A DNA stretch of 41,415 nt from positions 1 through 41,415 of the forward strand of contig DASZGZ010000043.1 of NCBI GenBank assembly GCA_035938355.1, given 5' to 3'. The DNA is from Acidobacteriaceae bacterium (GTDB lineage: Bacteria > Acidobacteriota > Terriglobia > Terriglobales > Acidobacteriaceae). Positions 6,087-40,397 of the stretch are shown here, in pieces (position 1 is the stretch's first letter; every line of letters starts with the position of its first letter). Both the position numbers and the translations under genes were made by a program. The notes beneath the pieces are model-generated. The model saw nothing but the letters and a program-made list of their open reading frames with translations, was not told the DNA's origin and did no database searches.

Positions 6087-6896
6087 TTATTTCTGTGCAG
6101 GAGCGGAATGTTGTGCAGGCGCCGGGGTGAGCACCGCATCGCCACCTTCAGCATTGACCGCACCATCTGCAAATTTCTTGTGCAGCTGGTGATGCAGGCA
6201 GTAGAGTGCCAGTTCGAGGCGGTCCGAGACGCCGAGCTTGTCATAGATCTTGCGCAGATAATTCTTGATGACTTGCTCAGTCGTACCCAACTGGTAGGCA
6301 ATCTCTTTGTTGCGTTTGCCCTGCGTGATGCAGGTGATGATCGCCATCTCCTTGGGCGAGAGACGGGGCTGGCTCTTGGGACTGGTTAGTGCGGTAGCCT
6401 GAGAGCGGTAGGCCTCGATCACCCAGTTGACCGACTGGTTGTCAATCCAGGTTTCTCCCTGTGCGATCTTACGAACGCATTTAACCAGCAGATCCGGCGA
6501 GATGGACCGCGGAATGATGCCACGTACGCCACGGCGATAGAGTTCGACCGTATTCTGCTCGTCGGTAGAAACGGCCTGAATAATGATCTTGACCTGCGGA
6601 TTGCGCCGCACGATTGCGGGGATAGCATCCGTGGTACCCGAGATGAGTCCGCCTTCGAGGATTACCAGATCGGTTGGAAACCTCTGAATCGCCGCTTCCA
6701 GGTTCTGGAGGTTATCGACCTGTGCAACTACCCGAATGTCATCTTCCAGCGCAAAGATCTTACGCATGCCGACGCGATAGATCGCCTGGGAATCCGCAAG
6801 AATAATGCGGACGATGTTCGGTTCGGTCGATGTGGTGGGCTCGACCGGATCGTCGGGAATGGTCTCGTCAAGCATGTCAGGCTTGGCTGCGCTCAT
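6087..6896 (-). CDS. NarL/LuxR-family response regulator with atypical receiver domain
   Basis: REC-like N-domain plus LuxR HTH (LSPKEMAII..GKRNKEIAYQLGTTEQVIKNYLRKIYDKLGV). The phospho-Asp position reads DLVILE. Confidence 0.9.
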   Translation of the reverse strand: MSAAKPDMLDETIPDDPVEPTTSTEPNIVRIILADSQAIYRVGMRKIFALEDDIRVVAQVDNLQNLEAAIQRFPTDLVILEGGLISGTTDAIPAIVRRNPQVKIIIQAVSTDEQNTVELYRRGVRGIIPRSISPDLLVKCVRKIAQGETWIDNQSVNWVIEAYRSQATALTSPKSQPRLSPKEMAIITCITQGKRNKEIAYQLGTTEQVIKNYLRKIYDKLGVSDRLELALYCLHHQLHKKFADGAVNAEGGDAVLTPAPAQHSAPAQK

Positions 6897-6904
6897 AATG
6901 AATT

Positions 6905-7243
6905 CTACTGACTGAAGTAATATTCGTCGATAACCGCTGCGGCACTCCAGCAGGTGTCACTGGTGTTGCAGCGTACCACACGGCCAGTGCAGTGAACCAC
7001 AACGTCTGTCGGGGTCCCCATGGCCTCTGCCGGCATCTTCATTGTAAAGCGTACCTGCGTCTGAACTTCGAGTGGTCGGGGAAGAGTAAATGCGACTCCT
7101 GTTGCGGAGATATTCTCCGTCATGGCCGCGATCTCACCAGCCGCGGTAAAGAGTCGCAGAGGGATCTGAAGCGGAAAGCGAACGGCATTTCTCAGCTCAA
7201 CTGGGGCATCCGCTCGTGCCTGTGCCGAGAGTGCGGGGGTCAT
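6905..7243 (-). CDS. Stand-alone PilZ-domain protein
   Basis: RxxxR (RNAVR) and (D/N)xSxxG (NISATG) c-di-GMP motifs; 112 aa. Confidence 0.85.
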   Translation of the reverse strand: MTPALSAQARADAPVELRNAVRFPLQIPLRLFTAAGEIAAMTENISATGVAFTLPRPLEVQTQVRFTMKMPAEAMGTPTDVVVHCTGRVVRCNTSDTCWSAAAVIDEYYFSQ

Positions 7244-7537
7244 GGGGCCACTATAAGTGCAAGGCGCGGACTAGGCCCATCCCACGAAGAGAGTAGCGAA
7301 ACACCCTGCTGGAGAGGCACTACGACGGGCACATGTGACTCTTTCACTCTATTGGGGTCGAAATAGATAACGACACTACCCGGCGCGAAATGAATAACTT
7401 GGTACGTCGGTAATATTACCATTCTCTCCAACGCTAAATTCCACCAAAGTTGTAGCAAGGCCAGGCAACCTCGGCTAAGGTTCGGAATACGTAGGCGATA
7501 CGCCACGTGCAGTACAGACCCTTGGGAGGCCCTTCCT

Positions 7538-7852
7538 ATGAAGCTGCTGTCAGTCGCAGCCTTGTCCGCCGTTCTGGTAGTACCGTGCTTTGCTAACGCG
7601 AAAGTATCGGCCGGAAGTCCGAACTTGCCTTTTCCGCGTGACCTCGGCAAATCCGTTGCGATGGGCAGCCCGAATCTGCCGTTTCCTCGCGACCTCGGCA
7701 GATCTGTCGCGAGTGGCAGCCCCAACCTGCCCTTCCCTCGTGACCTCGGCAAATCCGTCGCGAGTGGCAGCCCGAATCTGCCCTTCCCTCGTGACCTCGG
7801 AAGGTCTTTCAGTCCCAATCTTCCTTTCCCGCGCGATCTCGGAAAGTCCTAG
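7538..7852 (+). CDS. Secreted multi-copy peptide precursor (5x SPNLPFPRDLG[K/R]S)
   Basis: GGGAGG RBS at 7524-7529; Sec-type signal MKLLSVAALSAVLVVPCFANA; repeat cores differ almost only at synonymous sites. Confidence 0.88.
   Translation: MKLLSVAALSAVLVVPCFANAKVSAGSPNLPFPRDLGKSVAMGSPNLPFPRDLGRSVASGSPNLPFPRDLGKSVASGSPNLPFPRDLGRSFSPNLPFPRDLGKS
7613..7849 (+). repeat. Coding tandem repeat, 51-nt period (last linker shortened), 5 copies
   Basis: CC(G/C)AA(C/T)(C/T)TNCCNTT(T/C)CCNCG(T/C)GA(C/T)CTCGG recurs five times in frame. Confidence 0.95.
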
Positions 7853-7938
7853 TTTCTGACAAGCACTGACACCTTCGAATAATCGAAGAATCAGTTCACT
7901 GTAGCGTATGCTCTTCGATGGGATGAAATCGGAGAGCA

Positions 7939-8730
7939 ATGCGCTTTTTGACCGTTGATTCCGTAGGTTTTGCGGTAGGCCTGCTCCTGCAGGCGGCGCT
8001 GTGTTTGGTCATCTTCCGCAAACGACTAGCGCGTCTCTATCCGATCTTTGTCCTTTATCTCCTGCTGAATTTGATTGAGGATCCACTCGGCTGGTTTTTG
8101 CGCGGCCATGTGAGTGCGTATCGTCACTTCTACTTCATCGTCACCATTCTTGATTACGTCCTTCAGCTCCTGATCATCTTCGAGATTGGTCAGAACGTGG
8201 TGCGCCCCTCGAGGCGTTCCATCCACTTTCCAATCCTGCCGATTGCCACTGTCGCCGTCTTGCTGTGCGCTATCGTTGCGGCGAGCTTTTCGCGTCAGGT
8301 TCAGGCCGGTGGAACCGAACACCTAGTTCAGGTATCCATGCAGGTAACCCTTGGATTGGCGATTCTCAAACTTTTGGTCTTTGCAGCACTGGCAGGTTTT
8401 GCACAGGTTTTAGGCATTGGATGGAAGAGCCATGTGCTCCAGCTTGCCACCGGCTTGGCGTTTTATGCCGGGGCGTCTCTGCTTATACAGATCAGTTCAA
8501 GTCACCTAGCGACAGGGGACAGGGCATCCTATATTGCTCATCTTGTTAGACTTTCGCAGATTCAGTCTGCCGCCTACAACTTCACTTTGGCATTCTGGAT
8601 CTGGGCTTTTTCCCGAAATGAATCACCACGCAAAGATTTCACTCCACAAATGCAAGAAGTTCTGGTAACAATAGCTGAGTCAGCCAAACGTACTCGTTTA
8701 TCTGTTACCCGGAGCAATGAACGCAGATGA
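7939..8730 (+). CDS. Hypothetical ~7-TM integral membrane protein (candidate peptide receptor)
   Basis: 263 aa with seven hydrophobic segments and a ~38-aa hydrophilic C-tail; GGAGAG RBS; no recognisable enzyme motif. Function is inference. Confidence 0.8.
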   Translation: MRFLTVDSVGFAVGLLLQAALCLVIFRKRLARLYPIFVLYLLLNLIEDPLGWFLRGHVSAYRHFYFIVTILDYVLQLLIIFEIGQNVVRPSRRSIHFPILPIATVAVLLCAIVAASFSRQVQAGGTEHLVQVSMQVTLGLAILKLLVFAALAGFAQVLGIGWKSHVLQLATGLAFYAGASLLIQISSSHLATGDRASYIAHLVRLSQIQSAAYNFTLAFWIWAFSRNESPRKDFTPQMQEVLVTIAESAKRTRLSVTRSNERR

Positions 8731-9248
8731 CGTTCTCACTATTCCAGATACTGCTCGCCGTGGCCCTCCTCGCATTTGTGGGAGTGTGGCGTCGTCAGCA
8801 GGCAAAGCGGAAACAGCGCAGCTGGGATGAGATTGTTGCGGCGCTTCGGGCAAATGACTGGGGCCTGGACGAAGTCTCTGAACGGTATCTCTATCGCGGC
8901 GGCATCAAAGCGACCCCTGCCGACATATGGAAGAGAATCGATGGCGCACGCGGCTTGTGGGCGATGTACTGCAACGCTCCGCTGCTGGTGCAGCTTGCGG
9001 ATTATGCCGCCGAGCATGGCACCGATCCAGACGAAGCTCTCTTAGAGGGCCTGCGCAGCGATGCCTTCCAGATCCGCCTATGCGTGCTGATGGCGCTCAT
9101 TAAATACGCTATGTCCCACTCGACAATCGGCGCGTCCGTCAATGCACACCGTGCGACGGCTCTCTACAGCGAGATGCTGGCACACCTGACGACGCTCTTC
9201 CAGGAAAGTGCCGGCCAACTCTTCCCCAAATATCTGGAAGCAATGTAA
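8727..9248 (+). CDS. Hypothetical membrane-anchored protein
   Basis: 173 aa; N-terminal TM followed by WRRQQAKRKQR; ATGA overlap with the 7-TM gene. Confidence 0.8.
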   Translation: MTFSLFQILLAVALLAFVGVWRRQQAKRKQRSWDEIVAALRANDWGLDEVSERYLYRGGIKATPADIWKRIDGARGLWAMYCNAPLLVQLADYAAEHGTDPDEALLEGLRSDAFQIRLCVLMALIKYAMSHSTIGASVNAHRATALYSEMLAHLTTLFQESAGQLFPKYLEAM

Positions 9249-9264
9249 TCCCTCCTCCGGAATC

Positions 9265-9304
9265 AAGTGAAAAGAGCCTGCCGAAACGGCAGGCTCTTTC
9301 ACTT
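9265..9304. terminator. Bidirectional intrinsic terminator
   Basis: AAAGAGCCTGCCG-AAA-CGGCAGGCTCTTT hairpin between convergent genes. Confidence 0.9.
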
Positions 9305-25406: not shown

Positions 25407-27260
25407 ATGAAAAACCATTTGAAGACGATGGCGACCTGTGTGCTCGTGTCGGCCATGGCGACCGGCCACGCGCAGACGACAGCTGCCAGCGGCGACGCTA
25501 CGGGTAAAAGTACTGTCCGGCATAAGACAGCAGCGAAAGCGGCACATCGTCCGTCCGTCGAGACGCAGATTCAACAGCTCCGCGATGAGATGGAGACGCA
25601 GATCAACCAGCTGAGACAGCAGTTGAACGACAGCAATGCGCAGTTGCAGGCAGCCCAGCAAGCGGCCGCAGCCGCCAATGCAGCAGCAGCGCAGGCACAA
25701 CAGCAGGCCCAGCAGCAGCAACAGCAGACCACGGAGAATGCGACTGCCGTTTCAAACCTGCAGGGTGCGGTCAGCGATCTGAAGACAACCAGCACCTCTC
25801 TCGCGTCGACCATTCAGGAGACGCAGACGAACTTGACCAAGAAGATCGAACAGCCTGACGAGATCCACTTCAAGGGCGTTACGATTTCGCCGACGGGCTC
25901 CTTCATCGAAGCCGCGACCGTGTATCGCAGCGCTGCCATCGGCGGCGACATCAACACGCAGTTCACCGGCATTCCACTTCAGCATTCGAATGCAGCGCAG
26001 CTGAGCGAGTTCTACGGATCGGGCCGTCAATCCCGCCTGGCCCTCAAAGCAACCGGCAAACTGGCCAGTGTGGATATGACCGGCTACTACGAAATGGACT
26101 GGCTGGGAACCGGCATCACCTCCAACAACAACCAGTCGAACAGCTACGTCGTCCGCCAGCGCCAGCTCTGGGCACGAGCCGCCTTCCACAGCGGGTGGAA
26201 CATCAGCGGAGGCCAGATGTGGACATTGGCAACAGAAACCACCCACGGTCTGGACAATGGCACGGAAATCCTTCCCGCCGTTATCGACCCACAGTACGTC
26301 GCTGGCTTTGTCTGGGCGCGGCAGTATGGCTTCCGCGTGACCAGGGACTTCGGGGACAAGATCTGGATCGGCGCCTCGGCGGAAAATGCCGAGACACTCA
26401 ATCCTGCCGGGTCGAGCCTGCCTGTCAACCTGCTGCTCGGTTCCGACGGCAACAGCGGCGGCCTCTTCAACCCGACCGCGAACTACTCGTTCAACCTCGC
26501 ACCGGACATGATCGCGAAGGTCGCCTTCGAGCCGGGCTTTGGCCACTATGAGGTCTTCGGCATTGCCCGCTTCTTCCGCGATCGTATCTATCCCAACATG
26601 GTCGTCACCACCGTCAACGGCGTTACGACCGTTACCGGCACCTCGGCAGGCGCGTACAACGACAGCACGGTCGGTGGCGGCATTGGCGCCAGCGGTCGCG
26701 CGACGCTGCTCAACAAGAAGCTCACCGTTGGTCTAAAAGGCCTGTGGGGTGATGGAACAGGGCGCTACGGCTCTTCGACCATCGCCGATATCACACTTCG
26801 TCCCAATGCACAGATCGCTGTGCTGCATAACTTCGACGCACTGGGAACAATTGAAGCAAACCCAACCCAGCGCCTGAATCTGTACCTTAACTACGGCGGC
26901 GACTACATTGGACGGCGCTACTTCGGCAAAGTTGGCTACGGCTCGCCGCTTACCAACATGAGCGGCTGCAATACCGAACCGTTGCCAAGCACGACGGTCA
27001 CATACCCGAACAGCGGCGACGGCTTTACACCGTCGACGCCCGCCAACTGCGGCAACCAGACCAAGGACGTCCAGGAGTTAGCCACCGGCTACTGGTACGA
27101 CTTCTACCGCGGACCCATGGGTCGTTTCCGTCAGGGCATCCAATACAGCTACTTCCAGCGCAACATCTGGTCTGGCGCTGGTGGTACGACAAACCCTGGC
27201 GGCGGCGCCGAGGGTACCGACAACATCTTCGAGACCTCCATCCGCTACTACCTGCCGTAA
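25407..27260 (+). CDS. Outer-membrane porin-like beta-barrel protein with N-terminal coiled coil
   Basis: Signal peptide, Q/A-rich coiled coil (about aa 50-145), amphipathic beta-strands, C-terminal ETSIRYYLP. Confidence 0.75.
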   Translation: MKNHLKTMATCVLVSAMATGHAQTTAASGDATGKSTVRHKTAAKAAHRPSVETQIQQLRDEMETQINQLRQQLNDSNAQLQAAQQAAAAANAAAAQAQQQAQQQQQQTTENATAVSNLQGAVSDLKTTSTSLASTIQETQTNLTKKIEQPDEIHFKGVTISPTGSFIEAATVYRSAAIGGDINTQFTGIPLQHSNAAQLSEFYGSGRQSRLALKATGKLASVDMTGYYEMDWLGTGITSNNNQSNSYVVRQRQLWARAAFHSGWNISGGQMWTLATETTHGLDNGTEILPAVIDPQYVAGFVWARQYGFRVTRDFGDKIWIGASAENAETLNPAGSSLPVNLLLGSDGNSGGLFNPTANYSFNLAPDMIAKVAFEPGFGHYEVFGIARFFRDRIYPNMVVTTVNGVTTVTGTSAGAYNDSTVGGGIGASGRATLLNKKLTVGLKGLWGDGTGRYGSSTIADITLRPNAQIAVLHNFDALGTIEANPTQRLNLYLNYGGDYIGRRYFGKVGYGSPLTNMSGCNTEPLPSTTVTYPNSGDGFTPSTPANCGNQTKDVQELATGYWYDFYRGPMGRFRQGIQYSYFQRNIWSGAGGTTNPGGGAEGTDNIFETSIRYYLP

Positions 27261-27375: not shown

Positions 27376-27451
27376 GAGCTCGTAGCTCAGTTGGTAGAGC
27401 AACGCACTTTTAATGCGTGGGTCCTGGGTTCGATTCCCAGCGAGCTCACCA
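27376..27451 (+). tRNA. tRNA-Lys (UUU)
   Basis: 76 nt; acceptor GAGCTCG/CGAGCTC-ACCA, D-arm TAGCTCAGTTGGTAGAGC, anticodon arm ACGCA-CTTTTAA-TGCGT, T-loop GGTTCGATTCC. Confidence 0.98.
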
Positions 27452-37683: not shown

Positions 37684-38727
37684 ATGCCTGACGTGAGGCT
37701 TGATCGTGTTGTCTATGGTTTTGCTGGCGCGGTGGCCGCGCTTCTTTTTCTTTCCGTTTCGTTAACGCATGCGCAGTCCCCTGGTCGAGTCGAAAGCGTC
37801 CTGACCAAGGTTGCGGATGTCCCAATGCCGGGGCCCGCGGTCCGGTTCGACTACCAGAGCTTCGATCCGTCGAGCGGGCGCTTATACATCGCCCACATGA
37901 ACGCGGATCAACTGGTCATTTTTGATACTACGAAGAGGCAGGTGGTCGCGAATCTCGATGGGTTTCCTCGAGTTCATGGCGTTACCGTGGCCGGCGCGAT
38001 CCATCGTGTATATGCATCCGCTACCGGCTCGCATCAGGTCGTGGCAGTCGACATTGAGACGTTGAAGATTGTGGGGCGCGCCGGTCCCATCGTCTATCCC
38101 GATGGCCTTGCCTATGCGCCAAAGCAAAACAGGATTTTTGTCTCCGATGAACACGGCGGCGTGGACGCGGTGATCGACGCAGCGAGCAACAAGCTGATCA
38201 CGAACATCCGTCTTGGTGGCGGCGCGGGAAACACGGTTTACGATCCGGTCTCGGGTCACATCGTGGTCGCCGTTCATGGCGTGAATGTGCTCGCCATTAT
38301 CGATCCGGAGACGAATCGCATCATCCGGCAGGTGCCACTCGCGGGTATAGAAAACCCTCATGGCATTGCGCTGGATGTCGCGAGCCATATCGCCTTCGTG
38401 GCCGGCGAAGAGAATCACACGCTCGCGATGGTCGATCTGAATGGGATGAAGGTCCTCTCGACCTACCAGGTAGGCGACGATCCCGATGTGCTTGCATATG
38501 ATCCAGGTTTGAAGCGCTTGTATGTTTCGGCAGAGTCCGGCAGGGTCGCCGTGTTCGGGCGCAAGGGCACCGGCCTAGTTCTGCTGGACTCGTTCGATAT
38601 GCCTCATGCTCACACGGTCTCAGTGGATCCGAAGACGCACCTTGTCTATTTCCCGCTCGAGAATGTTGACGGTCGCCCCGTGTTGAGAATCATGAAGCCG
38701 ACGCTTCGATCGGTCGCGACGGAATAG
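37684..38727 (+). CDS. Secreted YncE/YVTN-like beta-propeller protein
   Basis: Signal peptide; RFDYQSFD..RLYIAHM, PDGLAY, PHGIALD and PDVLAYD blades. Confidence 0.85.
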   Translation: MPDVRLDRVVYGFAGAVAALLFLSVSLTHAQSPGRVESVLTKVADVPMPGPAVRFDYQSFDPSSGRLYIAHMNADQLVIFDTTKRQVVANLDGFPRVHGVTVAGAIHRVYASATGSHQVVAVDIETLKIVGRAGPIVYPDGLAYAPKQNRIFVSDEHGGVDAVIDAASNKLITNIRLGGGAGNTVYDPVSGHIVVAVHGVNVLAIIDPETNRIIRQVPLAGIENPHGIALDVASHIAFVAGEENHTLAMVDLNGMKVLSTYQVGDDPDVLAYDPGLKRLYVSAESGRVAVFGRKGTGLVLLDSFDMPHAHTVSVDPKTHLVYFPLENVDGRPVLRIMKPTLRSVATE

Positions 38728-38739
38728 CCTTCTGACCTC

Positions 38740-39213
38740 TCAGGTGCGCAACTTAAAGCTGGCCCTGCTGCCCAGGAGGACCAAGCAGCAGGACCCGAGT
38801 ACAACTGCTACTACCGCAGTGACAACACCTGTGAAAACCATTCCACCAGAGAATGAGCTGAGCATTGTGGAGAGCTGCGCCGGCTGCCTTTGCCAGAGCT
38901 GGGGCAGGTACCATGCGGCCAGAGCGACAGCGTAGAGGGCTGCGAGGATCCGCAGCAGCAGCATGCAGCGCGCGGCGCGTATCAGGGCGAGTTGCTGCCG
39001 TTGCGCCTGCATTTTGTGCCAGACGATGCCGGCGGAGGGAGGACTGCTTTGCGCGGACGTGGTGATTGCGTGACCGAGGAAGAGCTGCGCTACTCGCTTT
39101 GTCTCCGCGCAGGACGCGCACGCGGCGACATGATGCTCCAGATCGGCCGGCCAGCTTCCTGAGCGGGTGGCAGCGGCGACTAGCGGCTCGTGTTCGCAAT
39201 TGTCCTGAGTCAT
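38740..39213 (-). CDS. Putative zinc-binding transmembrane anti-sigma factor
   Basis: C..HVAACASC (HxxxCxxC) plus two TM helices; ATG at 39213 overlaps the sigma stop (ATGA). Confidence 0.78.
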   Translation of the reverse strand: MTQDNCEHEPLVAAATRSGSWPADLEHHVAACASCAETKRVAQLFLGHAITTSAQSSPPSAGIVWHKMQAQRQQLALIRAARCMLLLRILAALYAVALAAWYLPQLWQRQPAQLSTMLSSFSGGMVFTGVVTAVVAVVLGSCCLVLLGSRASFKLRT

Positions 39214-39794
39214 GATGTCTTCCTTTCCGGCCGGAGAAGCCTGGCGGCCTTTTTGCGCGCGCGAAAGAGCAGTGGACGGATGCTGAGAGCGGCGAGGCCG
39301 GTGGCGATGGCGATCTCCTGATGGCTCATGCCTTCGACGTAGGCGAGCCATAACAGTTCGCGCTCTTTCGGCTTCAGGGCCTGCATGACGTGGCGAACGT
39401 CGAGCTGCGTTTCGACATCGCAGGCGTGGGACTGATCAAAGTCCTCTGGCCATTGAGATTCCTGCCTGCGGCGCCACCGATCGCGAAGCAGGTTGGTGGC
39501 GATGCGGAAGAGGTAGGGGCGCGTTTCCGCGGCCGGCAGGGCGGCGGGGTGACGCTGGAGGAAGCGGAAGTAGGTCTCCTGCAGGACGTCGTCGGCAATG
39601 TCCCGTTGCCCGGTGACGCCGATGAGATAGGCATGGATGGGACGCGCTGTGGCATCGTAAAGCAACTGGAATTGCTGCTCATCCATTGCGGTGCTGTCCC
39701 GGGCGTTTCCATCGGCGGCAGCAGCACTCGCCGCAATGGCGGCTGCCGTTATGTTCGGACCGCTCGAATTTGCGAAGAAGAGAATGGCTTCCAT
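39210..39794 (-). CDS. ECF RNA polymerase sigma factor
   Basis: ADDVLQETY..YLFRIATNLLRD (region 2); LKPKERELLWLAYVEGMSHQEIA..LFRAR (region 4). Confidence 0.93.
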   Translation of the reverse strand: MEAILFFANSSGPNITAAAIAASAAAADGNARDSTAMDEQQFQLLYDATARPIHAYLIGVTGQRDIADDVLQETYFRFLQRHPAALPAAETRPYLFRIATNLLRDRWRRRQESQWPEDFDQSHACDVETQLDVRHVMQALKPKERELLWLAYVEGMSHQEIAIATGLAALSIRPLLFRARKKAARLLRPERKTS

Positions 39795-39800
39795 GTTTGC

Positions 39801-40247
39801 TTACGAGCGGGGACCGTTATCCACCAGACCAAAGCTTCGCGAGAGAGCGTAGGTTGCTGCGGCGGCAATGCCGAGACCGATGCCCAACGCAATCGCAAGT
39901 GTGCCCATCACGACGGCTACGTCATCGGAAAGCGTGCGATTTGCATGCAGCAGTAGTAGCGCGCCGCCAAAGACGATCAGCACGATCGATAACTGCACTC
40001 CGATGAGGATGCTACGTAAGGGCGCGGCGCGCGGTTCCCTCTCGCGCTCAAGACGCAGCGCTTCGACGAACTGGCGGCCTGCGTCGGTGGAGACGTAGGT
40101 GAGCAGCGTTTCCGGCGAATTGATCCGTTCGAGGAGCTTGGCCTGGAGGGTGGCCTGAAGCCGCGCCATGACAACGCGCCGGATGGAAGTAAAGATAAGC
40201 CAGGCGATGAAGCCTATCAACAAACAGACAAACAGCGGACCTTCCAT
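39801..40247 (-). CDS. Small 3-TM membrane protein (DUF6249-like)
   Basis: N-terminal TM, LQAKLLERI..LL.Y..TDAGRQF and two C-terminal TMs; AGAGGG RBS before ATG 40247. Confidence 0.7.
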   Translation of the reverse strand: MEGPLFVCLLIGFIAWLIFTSIRRVVMARLQATLQAKLLERINSPETLLTYVSTDAGRQFVEALRLEREREPRAAPLRSILIGVQLSIVLIVFGGALLLLHANRTLSDDVAVVMGTLAIALGIGLGIAAAATYALSRSFGLVDNGPRS

Positions 40248-40288
40248 TTCTCTACCCTCTTTCGTCGTTCTTGCTGCGTTTATCCATA

Positions 40289-40317
40289 CAACGCAAAAAG
40301 GGGGCGGGGAGTTAACA
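40289..40317 (-). promoter_or_regulatory. Putative ECF-sigma promoter
   Basis: Minus strand TGTTAAC-N17-CGTTG, matching the AAC/CGT pattern of ECF promoters. Confidence 0.6.
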
Positions 40318-40397
40318 GAAAAATTTGGGAAATCTGGAAGCCGGCTGACGGAAGGTCGTGCGGGGTTTTGCGCGGGGCCCCACAGTATCATCTTTCC

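Follow-up and report, generated by a model that had tools for sequence, protein, structure and literature searches.

Bacterial peptide signaling, as it is known, works through kinases or cytoplasmic tetratricopeptide repeat (TPR) receptors and has been studied almost only in Gram-positive bacteria. In Agr of Staphylococcus and ComCDE of Streptococcus, the peptide gene lies beside that of a polytopic receptor, and the signal and the sensing part are hypervariable, giving pherotypes. A secreted precursor, short peptides, and a seven-helix receptor are the marks of yeast alpha-factor/Ste2, fungal Kex2-processed repeat proteins, and the neuropeptide G protein-coupled receptors (GPCRs). Here we describe three genes in a 41,415-nucleotide stretch of DNA (the window) from an Acidobacteriaceae bacterium (assembly GCA_035938355.1, contig DASZGZ010000043.1, positions 1 to 41,415; genome completeness, 68%). 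They encode a probably exported peptide precursor, a stand-alone seven-transmembrane (7TM) protein, and a membrane-anchored partner, and they probably form a kinase-free peptide-pheromone system with the 7TM protein as the receptor. The trio is real, conserved, and undescribed in the literature searched, and a signaling role is proposed for it.

In ComQXPA of Bacillus (PMC6334282), a small peptide gene likewise lies beside a polytopic membrane receptor, and a hypervariable signal and sensing part are combined with a conserved output side, giving pherotypes. The trio differs from ComQXPA, Agr, and ComCDE in having no kinase domain and no dedicated maturase or exporter, in its Sec-type precursor with multi-copy cores, in its unrelated receptor and partner families, and in its diderm host. 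Furthermore, the adjacent regulator has Glu81 in place of the phosphoacceptor aspartate, unlike the cognate response regulators of Agr and Com. Rap-Phr propeptides (PMC11343458, PMC5199041) are Sec-exported, sometimes carry several identical pheromone copies (up to 8), and are matured by extracellular proteases. The trio precursor resembles these RRNPPA members as a signal-peptide propeptide with sometimes repeated pheromones; however, in RRNPPA systems the imported peptide meets its TPR receptor in the cytoplasm, whereas the candidate receptor here is a membrane protein with no adjacent TPR gene. The trio shares short peptides from a secreted precursor, a predicted GPCR-type arrangement, and co-evolving pairs with alpha-factor/Ste2, fungal Kex2-processed repeat proteins, the neuropeptide GPCRs, and the Ustilago ligand-receptor pair Pit2/Gpe1 (PMC13652807). 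It differs from these eukaryotic systems in having no sequence homology and no heterotrimeric G protein, in its linkers, which mostly lack dibasic Kex2 sites, and in its presumed transducer, a one-helix membrane protein of the same operon. Seven-helix membrane domains are also found in bacterial 7TMR-DISM, HisKA-7TM, 7TM-HD, MASE4, and the microbial rhodopsins. In the known bacterial 7TM sensors, the helices are joined to a kinase, cyclase, or hydrolase domain, as in DgcT and CdgI of E. coli (MASE4), whose cyclase-fused 7TMs are reported to be GPCR-like (PMC10760455), whereas the family described here stands alone. Repeated pheromones and cyclase-fused GPCR-like 7TMs are thus already known from Rap-Phr and E. 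coli, respectively; a stand-alone, peptide-paired 7TM protein with a partner would be new.

All the elements listed in the initial annotation (precursor with five cores, 7TM protein, ATGA-coupled partner, terminator, PilZ, and LuxR regulator without the phosphoacceptor aspartate) were recovered (Table 1). Its statement that the locus lacks a histidine kinase, AgrB, C39 exporter, RRNPP regulator, and maturase of ribosomally synthesized and post-translationally modified peptides (RiPPs) was also borne out: a Pfam scan of 44 window open reading frames (ORFs), with one further 542-aa ORF outside the scan, found no histidine kinase, AgrB, C39 peptidase, RRNPP-size TPR regulator, or RiPP maturase.

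The N-terminus of the precursor is hydrophobic and ends in an A-N-A site; the signal peptide was assigned by hydropathy and visual inspection. Its core copies are 80–83% alike at the DNA level. All 11 variable nucleotide sites among the five cores are synonymous, as are all 62 pairwise nucleotide differences inside them (58 at third positions and 4 at first positions of Leu codons). Because the cores differ solely by synonymous changes, the repeat is a selected peptide under purifying selection and not a chance DNA repeat. Precursors in the clade of the window carry 3–14 repeats, whereas other clades have single Gly-Gly-x-x-Pro-x-Pro cores with hydrophobic tails or, elsewhere, Cys-pair cores. 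Therefore, multi-copy precursors are a clade trait and not a defining feature of the family. The initial annotation had regarded them as a eukaryotic trait, which fits neither these many single-core members nor the repeated Rap-Phr propeptides (PMC11343458, PMC5199041). Across the genus, small or aromatic residues precede 107 cores, with Ala or Val at −2 to −4. Each linker in the window has one Lys or Arg, and of the 44 repeat units listed, only a few contain dibasic Kex2 sites. In L167 and L171, two single-core precursor genes that are nearly identical, with 1–3 differences in their core residues, lie in tandem, a duplication at the gene level rather than within a gene. Frameshifts are present within the repeat array of L001 and L022 and within the 7TM gene of L021 and L023, reflecting either assembly error or real breakage.

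We suggest the following mechanism. The precursor, for which Sec export is predicted, would give rise to multiple copies of one short peptide rich in proline. Cleavage may occur in the small or hydrophobic linkers, with trimming that stops at an N-terminal X-Pro (Ser-Pro here). The core peptide would dock on the outside of the 7TM protein, whose conserved inner face may contact the partner and relay the signal without a kinase. Each core/7TM allele pair would then act as a pherotype.

An upstream repeat precursor and a downstream partner were present in 28/28 GTDB loci found by the 7TM profile, two of the precursors being truncated at contig ends. These loci had been recovered through C-terminal patterns of the 7TM protein, and trio conservation was therefore retested from LuxR and partner anchors. 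The LuxR anchor matched in 24 of the 27 other genus genomes and gave 24 regions from 23 genomes, largely the same genomes as those of L001–L023. PilZ and the repeat precursor were present in all 23 informative regions, and all five genes in 20/20 regions of sufficient length. For the partner anchor, 40 of the 92 partner matches were taken, chosen as previously unexamined. A 7TM gene lay directly upstream in 36 of them, with a signal-peptide precursor in 35 of the 36 (30 by script and 5 by eye; the last locus has 8 nt of upstream DNA), and 4 partners stood alone. Across the family, 83–85 of 100 7TMs have a precursor (103 distinct 7TMs, with 3 second copies in tandem set aside). It was detected in 75, with five detector hits rejected by eye; a further 7 loci are contig-cut with a Pro-rich end visible, and the detector, a loose one that fires on 62/402 control ORFs, missed 1 clear and 2 doubtful precursors. 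The 7TM profile yields 963 clusters at 50% identity. In a phylum sample with 10 candidates scored per genome, it matched in 17/19 Acidobacteriaceae compared with 3/231 other genomes, and the partner profile matched in 74/122 family genomes and in 0/172 genomes from other families of the class.

There are exceptions: 10 peptide-less 7TMs form one clade and 5 more are scattered. The members of this clade (L061–L063, L066, L074, L078, L111, and L114–L116) also lack the partner and have a conserved C-terminal extension, and upstream of most of them lies a GTAAY-RTTAC-N4/5-RTTAC box similar to the palindrome region of the window. They are possibly "solo" receptors under a shared regulator.

The association with an upstream peptide gene and the co-variation of peptide and receptor had both been named as checks in the initial annotation, and both were found. 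Within the genus, the 7TM protein shares a median identity of 0.64 with its window counterpart (21 loci), compared with 0.93 for the partner, 0.95 for LuxR, and 0.96 for PilZ. Nonsynonymous divergence (dN) in 18 loci is 0.31 for the 7TM gene versus 0.033–0.053 for the other genes, and synonymous divergence, which is near saturation, is 1.56 versus 0.68–1.19; dN is 0.54 in the predicted outer half of the 7TM protein and 0.18 in the inner half. Across 18 species (the window plus L002–L023; L001 was dropped as a near-duplicate, L009, L016, and L020 as truncated, and L021 and L023 as frameshifted), the distance between 10-residue cores correlates with that between outer halves (0.56, p 0.0005; also 0.56 when partial on the flanks), but not with that between inner halves (0.14) or flanking genes (0.10). 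The correlation alternates along the protein, with 0.19, 0.26, 0.42, and 0.59 in the outer segments and 0.15, 0.16, 0.17, and 0.01 in the inner segments, a pattern that simple linkage would not produce. The signal peptide and the 7TM C-tail track the flanks (0.60 and 0.55). The tree of the 7TM disagrees with that of the flanks, and approximately unbiased tests reject 6/6 cross-tested clades, the groups having been taken from the tree of the other data set after both trees were seen. L015 and L018 have flanks that are 94% alike but different cores and 7TM types. The tree conflict and this contrast show that species exchange a cassette that runs from the cores to TM7, with conserved sequence at its borders. 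A comparable exchange of comQ-comX-5′ comP between conserved borders is described in PMC6334282. The peptide and the predicted 7TM outer face are hypervariable and co-vary beside a conserved partner, as would be expected of a private cell-to-cell signal.

The AlphaFold model of the 7TM protein has seven long helices and a C-terminal helix (mean pLDDT 72.5, pTM 0.64), and GPCR-type matches dominate the structure comparison; the fold is predicted to be GPCR-like, with a shape like that of animal hormone receptors. The loops contain on average 3.2, 3.2, 1.3, and 8.7 Lys plus Arg inside and 0.4–0.6 outside, and the predicted N-out/C-in topology is in line with the positive-inside rule. Searched against the PDB, the 7TM profile found no homologue (best E 1.9). 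Among 145 7TM members, the sole GPCR family match in Pfam was GPR180-TMEM145_TM, at E 5e-4 in one member, and there was no match to 7TMR-DISM, HisKA-7TM, 7TM-HD, MASE4, HisKA, or HATPase. Unlike the microbial rhodopsins, the protein has no retinal-binding Lys in TM7 (aa 198–225). No fused output domain was seen in the best 150 7TM representatives, the longest of which (383 aa) is a natural 7TM-partner fusion (P0366), one sequence on one 7.7-kb contig. The partner model (pLDDT 90.8) combines a single membrane helix at the N-terminus with a bundle of helices that is predicted to be cytoplasmic. No family in Pfam, NCBIfam, PADLOC, or the PDB fits the 7TM protein or the partner, and database sources label both as hypothetical. 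Bacteria are not known to have heterotrimeric G proteins or arrestins. The proposal in the initial annotation of an undescribed kinase-free peptide/receptor module agrees with the two genomic results and the predicted fold, with the peptide-less 7TM subclade as an exception.

The 7TM and partner genes overlap by ATGA (8727–8730), through which the partner is predicted to be translationally coupled. The hairpin over the 7TM ribosome-binding site has z < −2 in 21/28 loci, compared with 1/25 pilZ and 1/24 luxR start regions; however, the 7909–7938 element was absent from the RNAalifold result for a MAFFT alignment. The hairpin would favor the peptide over the receptor on a shared message, keeping the receptor scarce. 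A conserved TATGCT in the 5′ arm might serve as a −10 box, in place of or in addition to this role. Within the 294-nt gap between PilZ and precursor (7244–7537), other conserved blocks lie at 7278–7300 and 7436–7458 (CATCCCACGAA and AAATT...AAGTTGTAG); they are kept even in the distant L024, L025, and L028 and are likely promoter or operator elements. In the 4 soil metatranscriptomes examined of 24 listed, contigs from RNA runs that are identical to the window cover part of each of the five genes, which indicates presence in RNA libraries and not level, strand, or operon structure.

The PilZ/LuxR pair is a candidate output of the trio, although a doubtful one. In a five-gene circuit, which would extend the peptide-pheromone explanation rather than exclude it and which we also consider unlikely, the signal would feed cyclic di-GMP (c-di-GMP)-bound PilZ and the LuxR regulator, and LuxR would bind the shared palindrome in an autoinduction loop. 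The PilZ motifs RxxxR (aa 18–22) and NxSxxG (aa 44–49), which we take to be its c-di-GMP motifs, are intact. In the LuxR receiver, Glu81, Ala108, and Arg130 occupy what we assume, from the receiver consensus, to be the phospho-Asp, Thr/Ser, and Lys positions; Glu81 is also found in 7/7 homologues compared, and such a receiver needs a non-kinase input. The 7409–7420 palindrome occurs once in each of the 3 near-complete genus genomes searched. The reported fusion of the GPCR-like DgcT and CdgI to c-di-GMP cyclases (PMC10760455) points in the same direction. The divergent layout holds in the whole genus and in 10/20 other-genus loci (2/20 are contig-cut), but an unrelated gene intervenes in 4 of these 10, and an aldo-keto reductase gene adjoins the module more often (16/20). 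Moreover, LuxR is present in 117/122 family genomes versus 74/122 for the partner, and in 12/12 genomes of genus g12, where no partner was found (0/12). Among the 70 scanned neighbors (of 140 candidate ORFs) of 7TM paralogues, there was no GGDEF/EAL gene and no recurring kinase, although a PAS kinase and a receiver lie near one paralogue; neither these neighbors nor the window ORFs scanned include AgrB, ComQ, a C39-ABC maturase/exporter, or a TPR receptor. Synteny explains the adjacency as well as function does, and the link to PilZ/LuxR and c-di-GMP made in the initial annotation is weak.

The same ligand-receptor co-variation would be expected of a cell-autonomous envelope sensor, in which the peptide, whether free or tethered to the membrane, would remain in the periplasm of its producer and occupy the producer's own 7TM protein. 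This receptor would be switched when peptide is lost because the outer membrane leaks, because proteases degrade the peptide, or because export fails. The diderm host, the absence of a dedicated outer-membrane exporter at the locus, and the hydrophobic tails of single-core precursors suit this idea. However, a private signal gives little reason for interspecies cassette swapping and strong outer-face diversification, and the multi-copy precursors have no tether; we regard it as improbable. Allele swapping is typical of conflict systems, and a polymorphic peptide beside a co-varying membrane protein, with multi-copy precursors to raise the dose, might also describe a microcin- or bacteriocin-like weapon against relatives, with the 7TM protein (and partner) as immunity protein or uptake/killing target. 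This is slightly less probable again: the cores are short, near neutral, and neither amphipathic nor Arg-rich; there is no exporter, maturase, or PADLOC match; the chromosomal position is fixed in 23/23 informative genus regions; none was found in the viral contigs searched; the conserved 7TM inner face and partner suggest transduction; and the peptide-less clade has its own operator-like motif. Least probable is an AgrB/exosortase-like processing or modifying enzyme or exporter, with the true receptor or function elsewhere. In its favor, Agr and ComQXP show co-variation of substrate and maturase (comQ, PMC6334282), and the polar residues N44, D48, D72, and Q76 of TM2/TM3 are invariant in the subfamily of the window. 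Against it, conservation across 103 family members falls on Trp, Gly, Tyr, Pro, and a single inner Glu, without a conserved outer Cys/His/Ser/Asp set, peptidase or transferase profiles gave nothing beyond single chance hits in 145 members, GPCR-type structural matches dominate, and 7TMs persist without a peptide gene.

If the trio is a peptide-pheromone system, a ligand-paired, GPCR-shaped, kinase-free receptor family in a lineage that ranks among the most abundant in soil would add a new signaling class. The ligand encoded next to each receptor would provide testable pairs and many orthogonal peptide sensors, the family would bear on the origin of peptide-binding 7TM receptors, and the peptides might be growth or resuscitation cues for hard-to-culture Acidobacteria. 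More tentatively, at somewhat less than an even chance, Acidobacteriaceae may possess a third class of bacterial peptide communication, with tandem-repeat prohormone-like precursors, stand-alone receptors of true GPCR fold, and a membrane-anchored helical transducer replacing the kinase or G protein. The receptors would fall into approximately 960 clusters (50% identity), with several paralogues in each genome and additional orphan receptors, and soil species would trade pherotype cassettes. If true, this class would be the bacterial equivalent of peptide-GPCR signaling and possibly a distant relation of it.

The source genome holds a second module (G000:C175, L103:1507-3000), which consists of a 48-aa single-core precursor with a hydrophobic tail, a 259-aa 7TM protein, and a 176-aa partner; it lies downstream of a thioredoxin reductase-like gene and without PilZ/LuxR. 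Of two distant 7TM paralogues (G000:C393:5279-6166, L104, and G000:C238:2559-3323), the gyrB-adjacent one has no visible peptide gene, and the other is contig-cut near a helix-turn-helix (HTH)-like gene. Solo 7TMs between two genes, presumably Hsp20-like and ClpB-like, share genomes G076 and G147 with solo partners (L049, L151, L158–L161), forming a split second module. Two 7TM genes follow one precursor in L036, L041, L107, and L181, the second copy lacking the conserved C-terminal helix in the first three. Cys-pair single-core modules often lie near an unannotated 250–280-aa HTH-like gene (L060, L064, L067, L068, L072, L076, L129, L131), which has no Pfam match at 1e-5, is presumably XRE-like, and is a candidate for another kinase-free regulator.

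Table 1. Features of the trio and its neighbors (window coordinates).
Feature	Position	Strand	Remarks
Multi-copy peptide precursor, 104 aa	7538–7852	+	Predicted Sec signal peptide and five identical cores; repeat precursor ORF in 28/28 orthologous loci
Predicted Sec signal peptide	7538–7600 (~aa 1–21)	+	By eye and hydropathy
Five 11-aa Pro-rich cores	starts 7616, 7667, 7718, 7769, 7811	+	Lys/Arg-Ser after each
Predicted hairpin over 7TM ribosome-binding site	7909–7938	+	z < −2 in 21/28 loci
Stand-alone 7TM protein, 263 aa	7939–8730	+	Predicted N-out/C-in; outer loops variable, inner loops and C-terminal helix conserved; candidate receptor
Partner, 173 aa	8727–9248	+	N-terminal membrane helix and helical bundle, predicted cytoplasmic; candidate transducer
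Intrinsic terminator hairpin	9271–9299	either	Between the partner gene and the aldo-keto reductase gene that converges on it; probably bidirectional
12-bp palindrome, divergent intergenic region	7409–7420	unstranded	Conserved in genus; candidate operator
Stand-alone PilZ (PF07238, E 5e-12)	6905–7243	−	Neighbor of trio; candidate link only
NarL/LuxR-type regulator, receiver and GerE	6087–6896	−	Aspartate-less receiver (Glu81); core Acidobacteriaceae gene; neighbor of trio

The terminator hairpin has a folding energy of −31.5 kcal/mol (z −7.4, 0/200 shuffles as stable) and was missed by a simple terminator scan. Elsewhere in the window, two long ORFs have no Pfam match at 1e-6 (25407–27260, 617 aa, and 37684–38727, 347 aa), as do genes on both sides of an extracytoplasmic function (ECF) sigma factor (39210–39794) in the region 38740–40391. 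The sole Rfam match of the window is one tRNA gene at 27376–27448.

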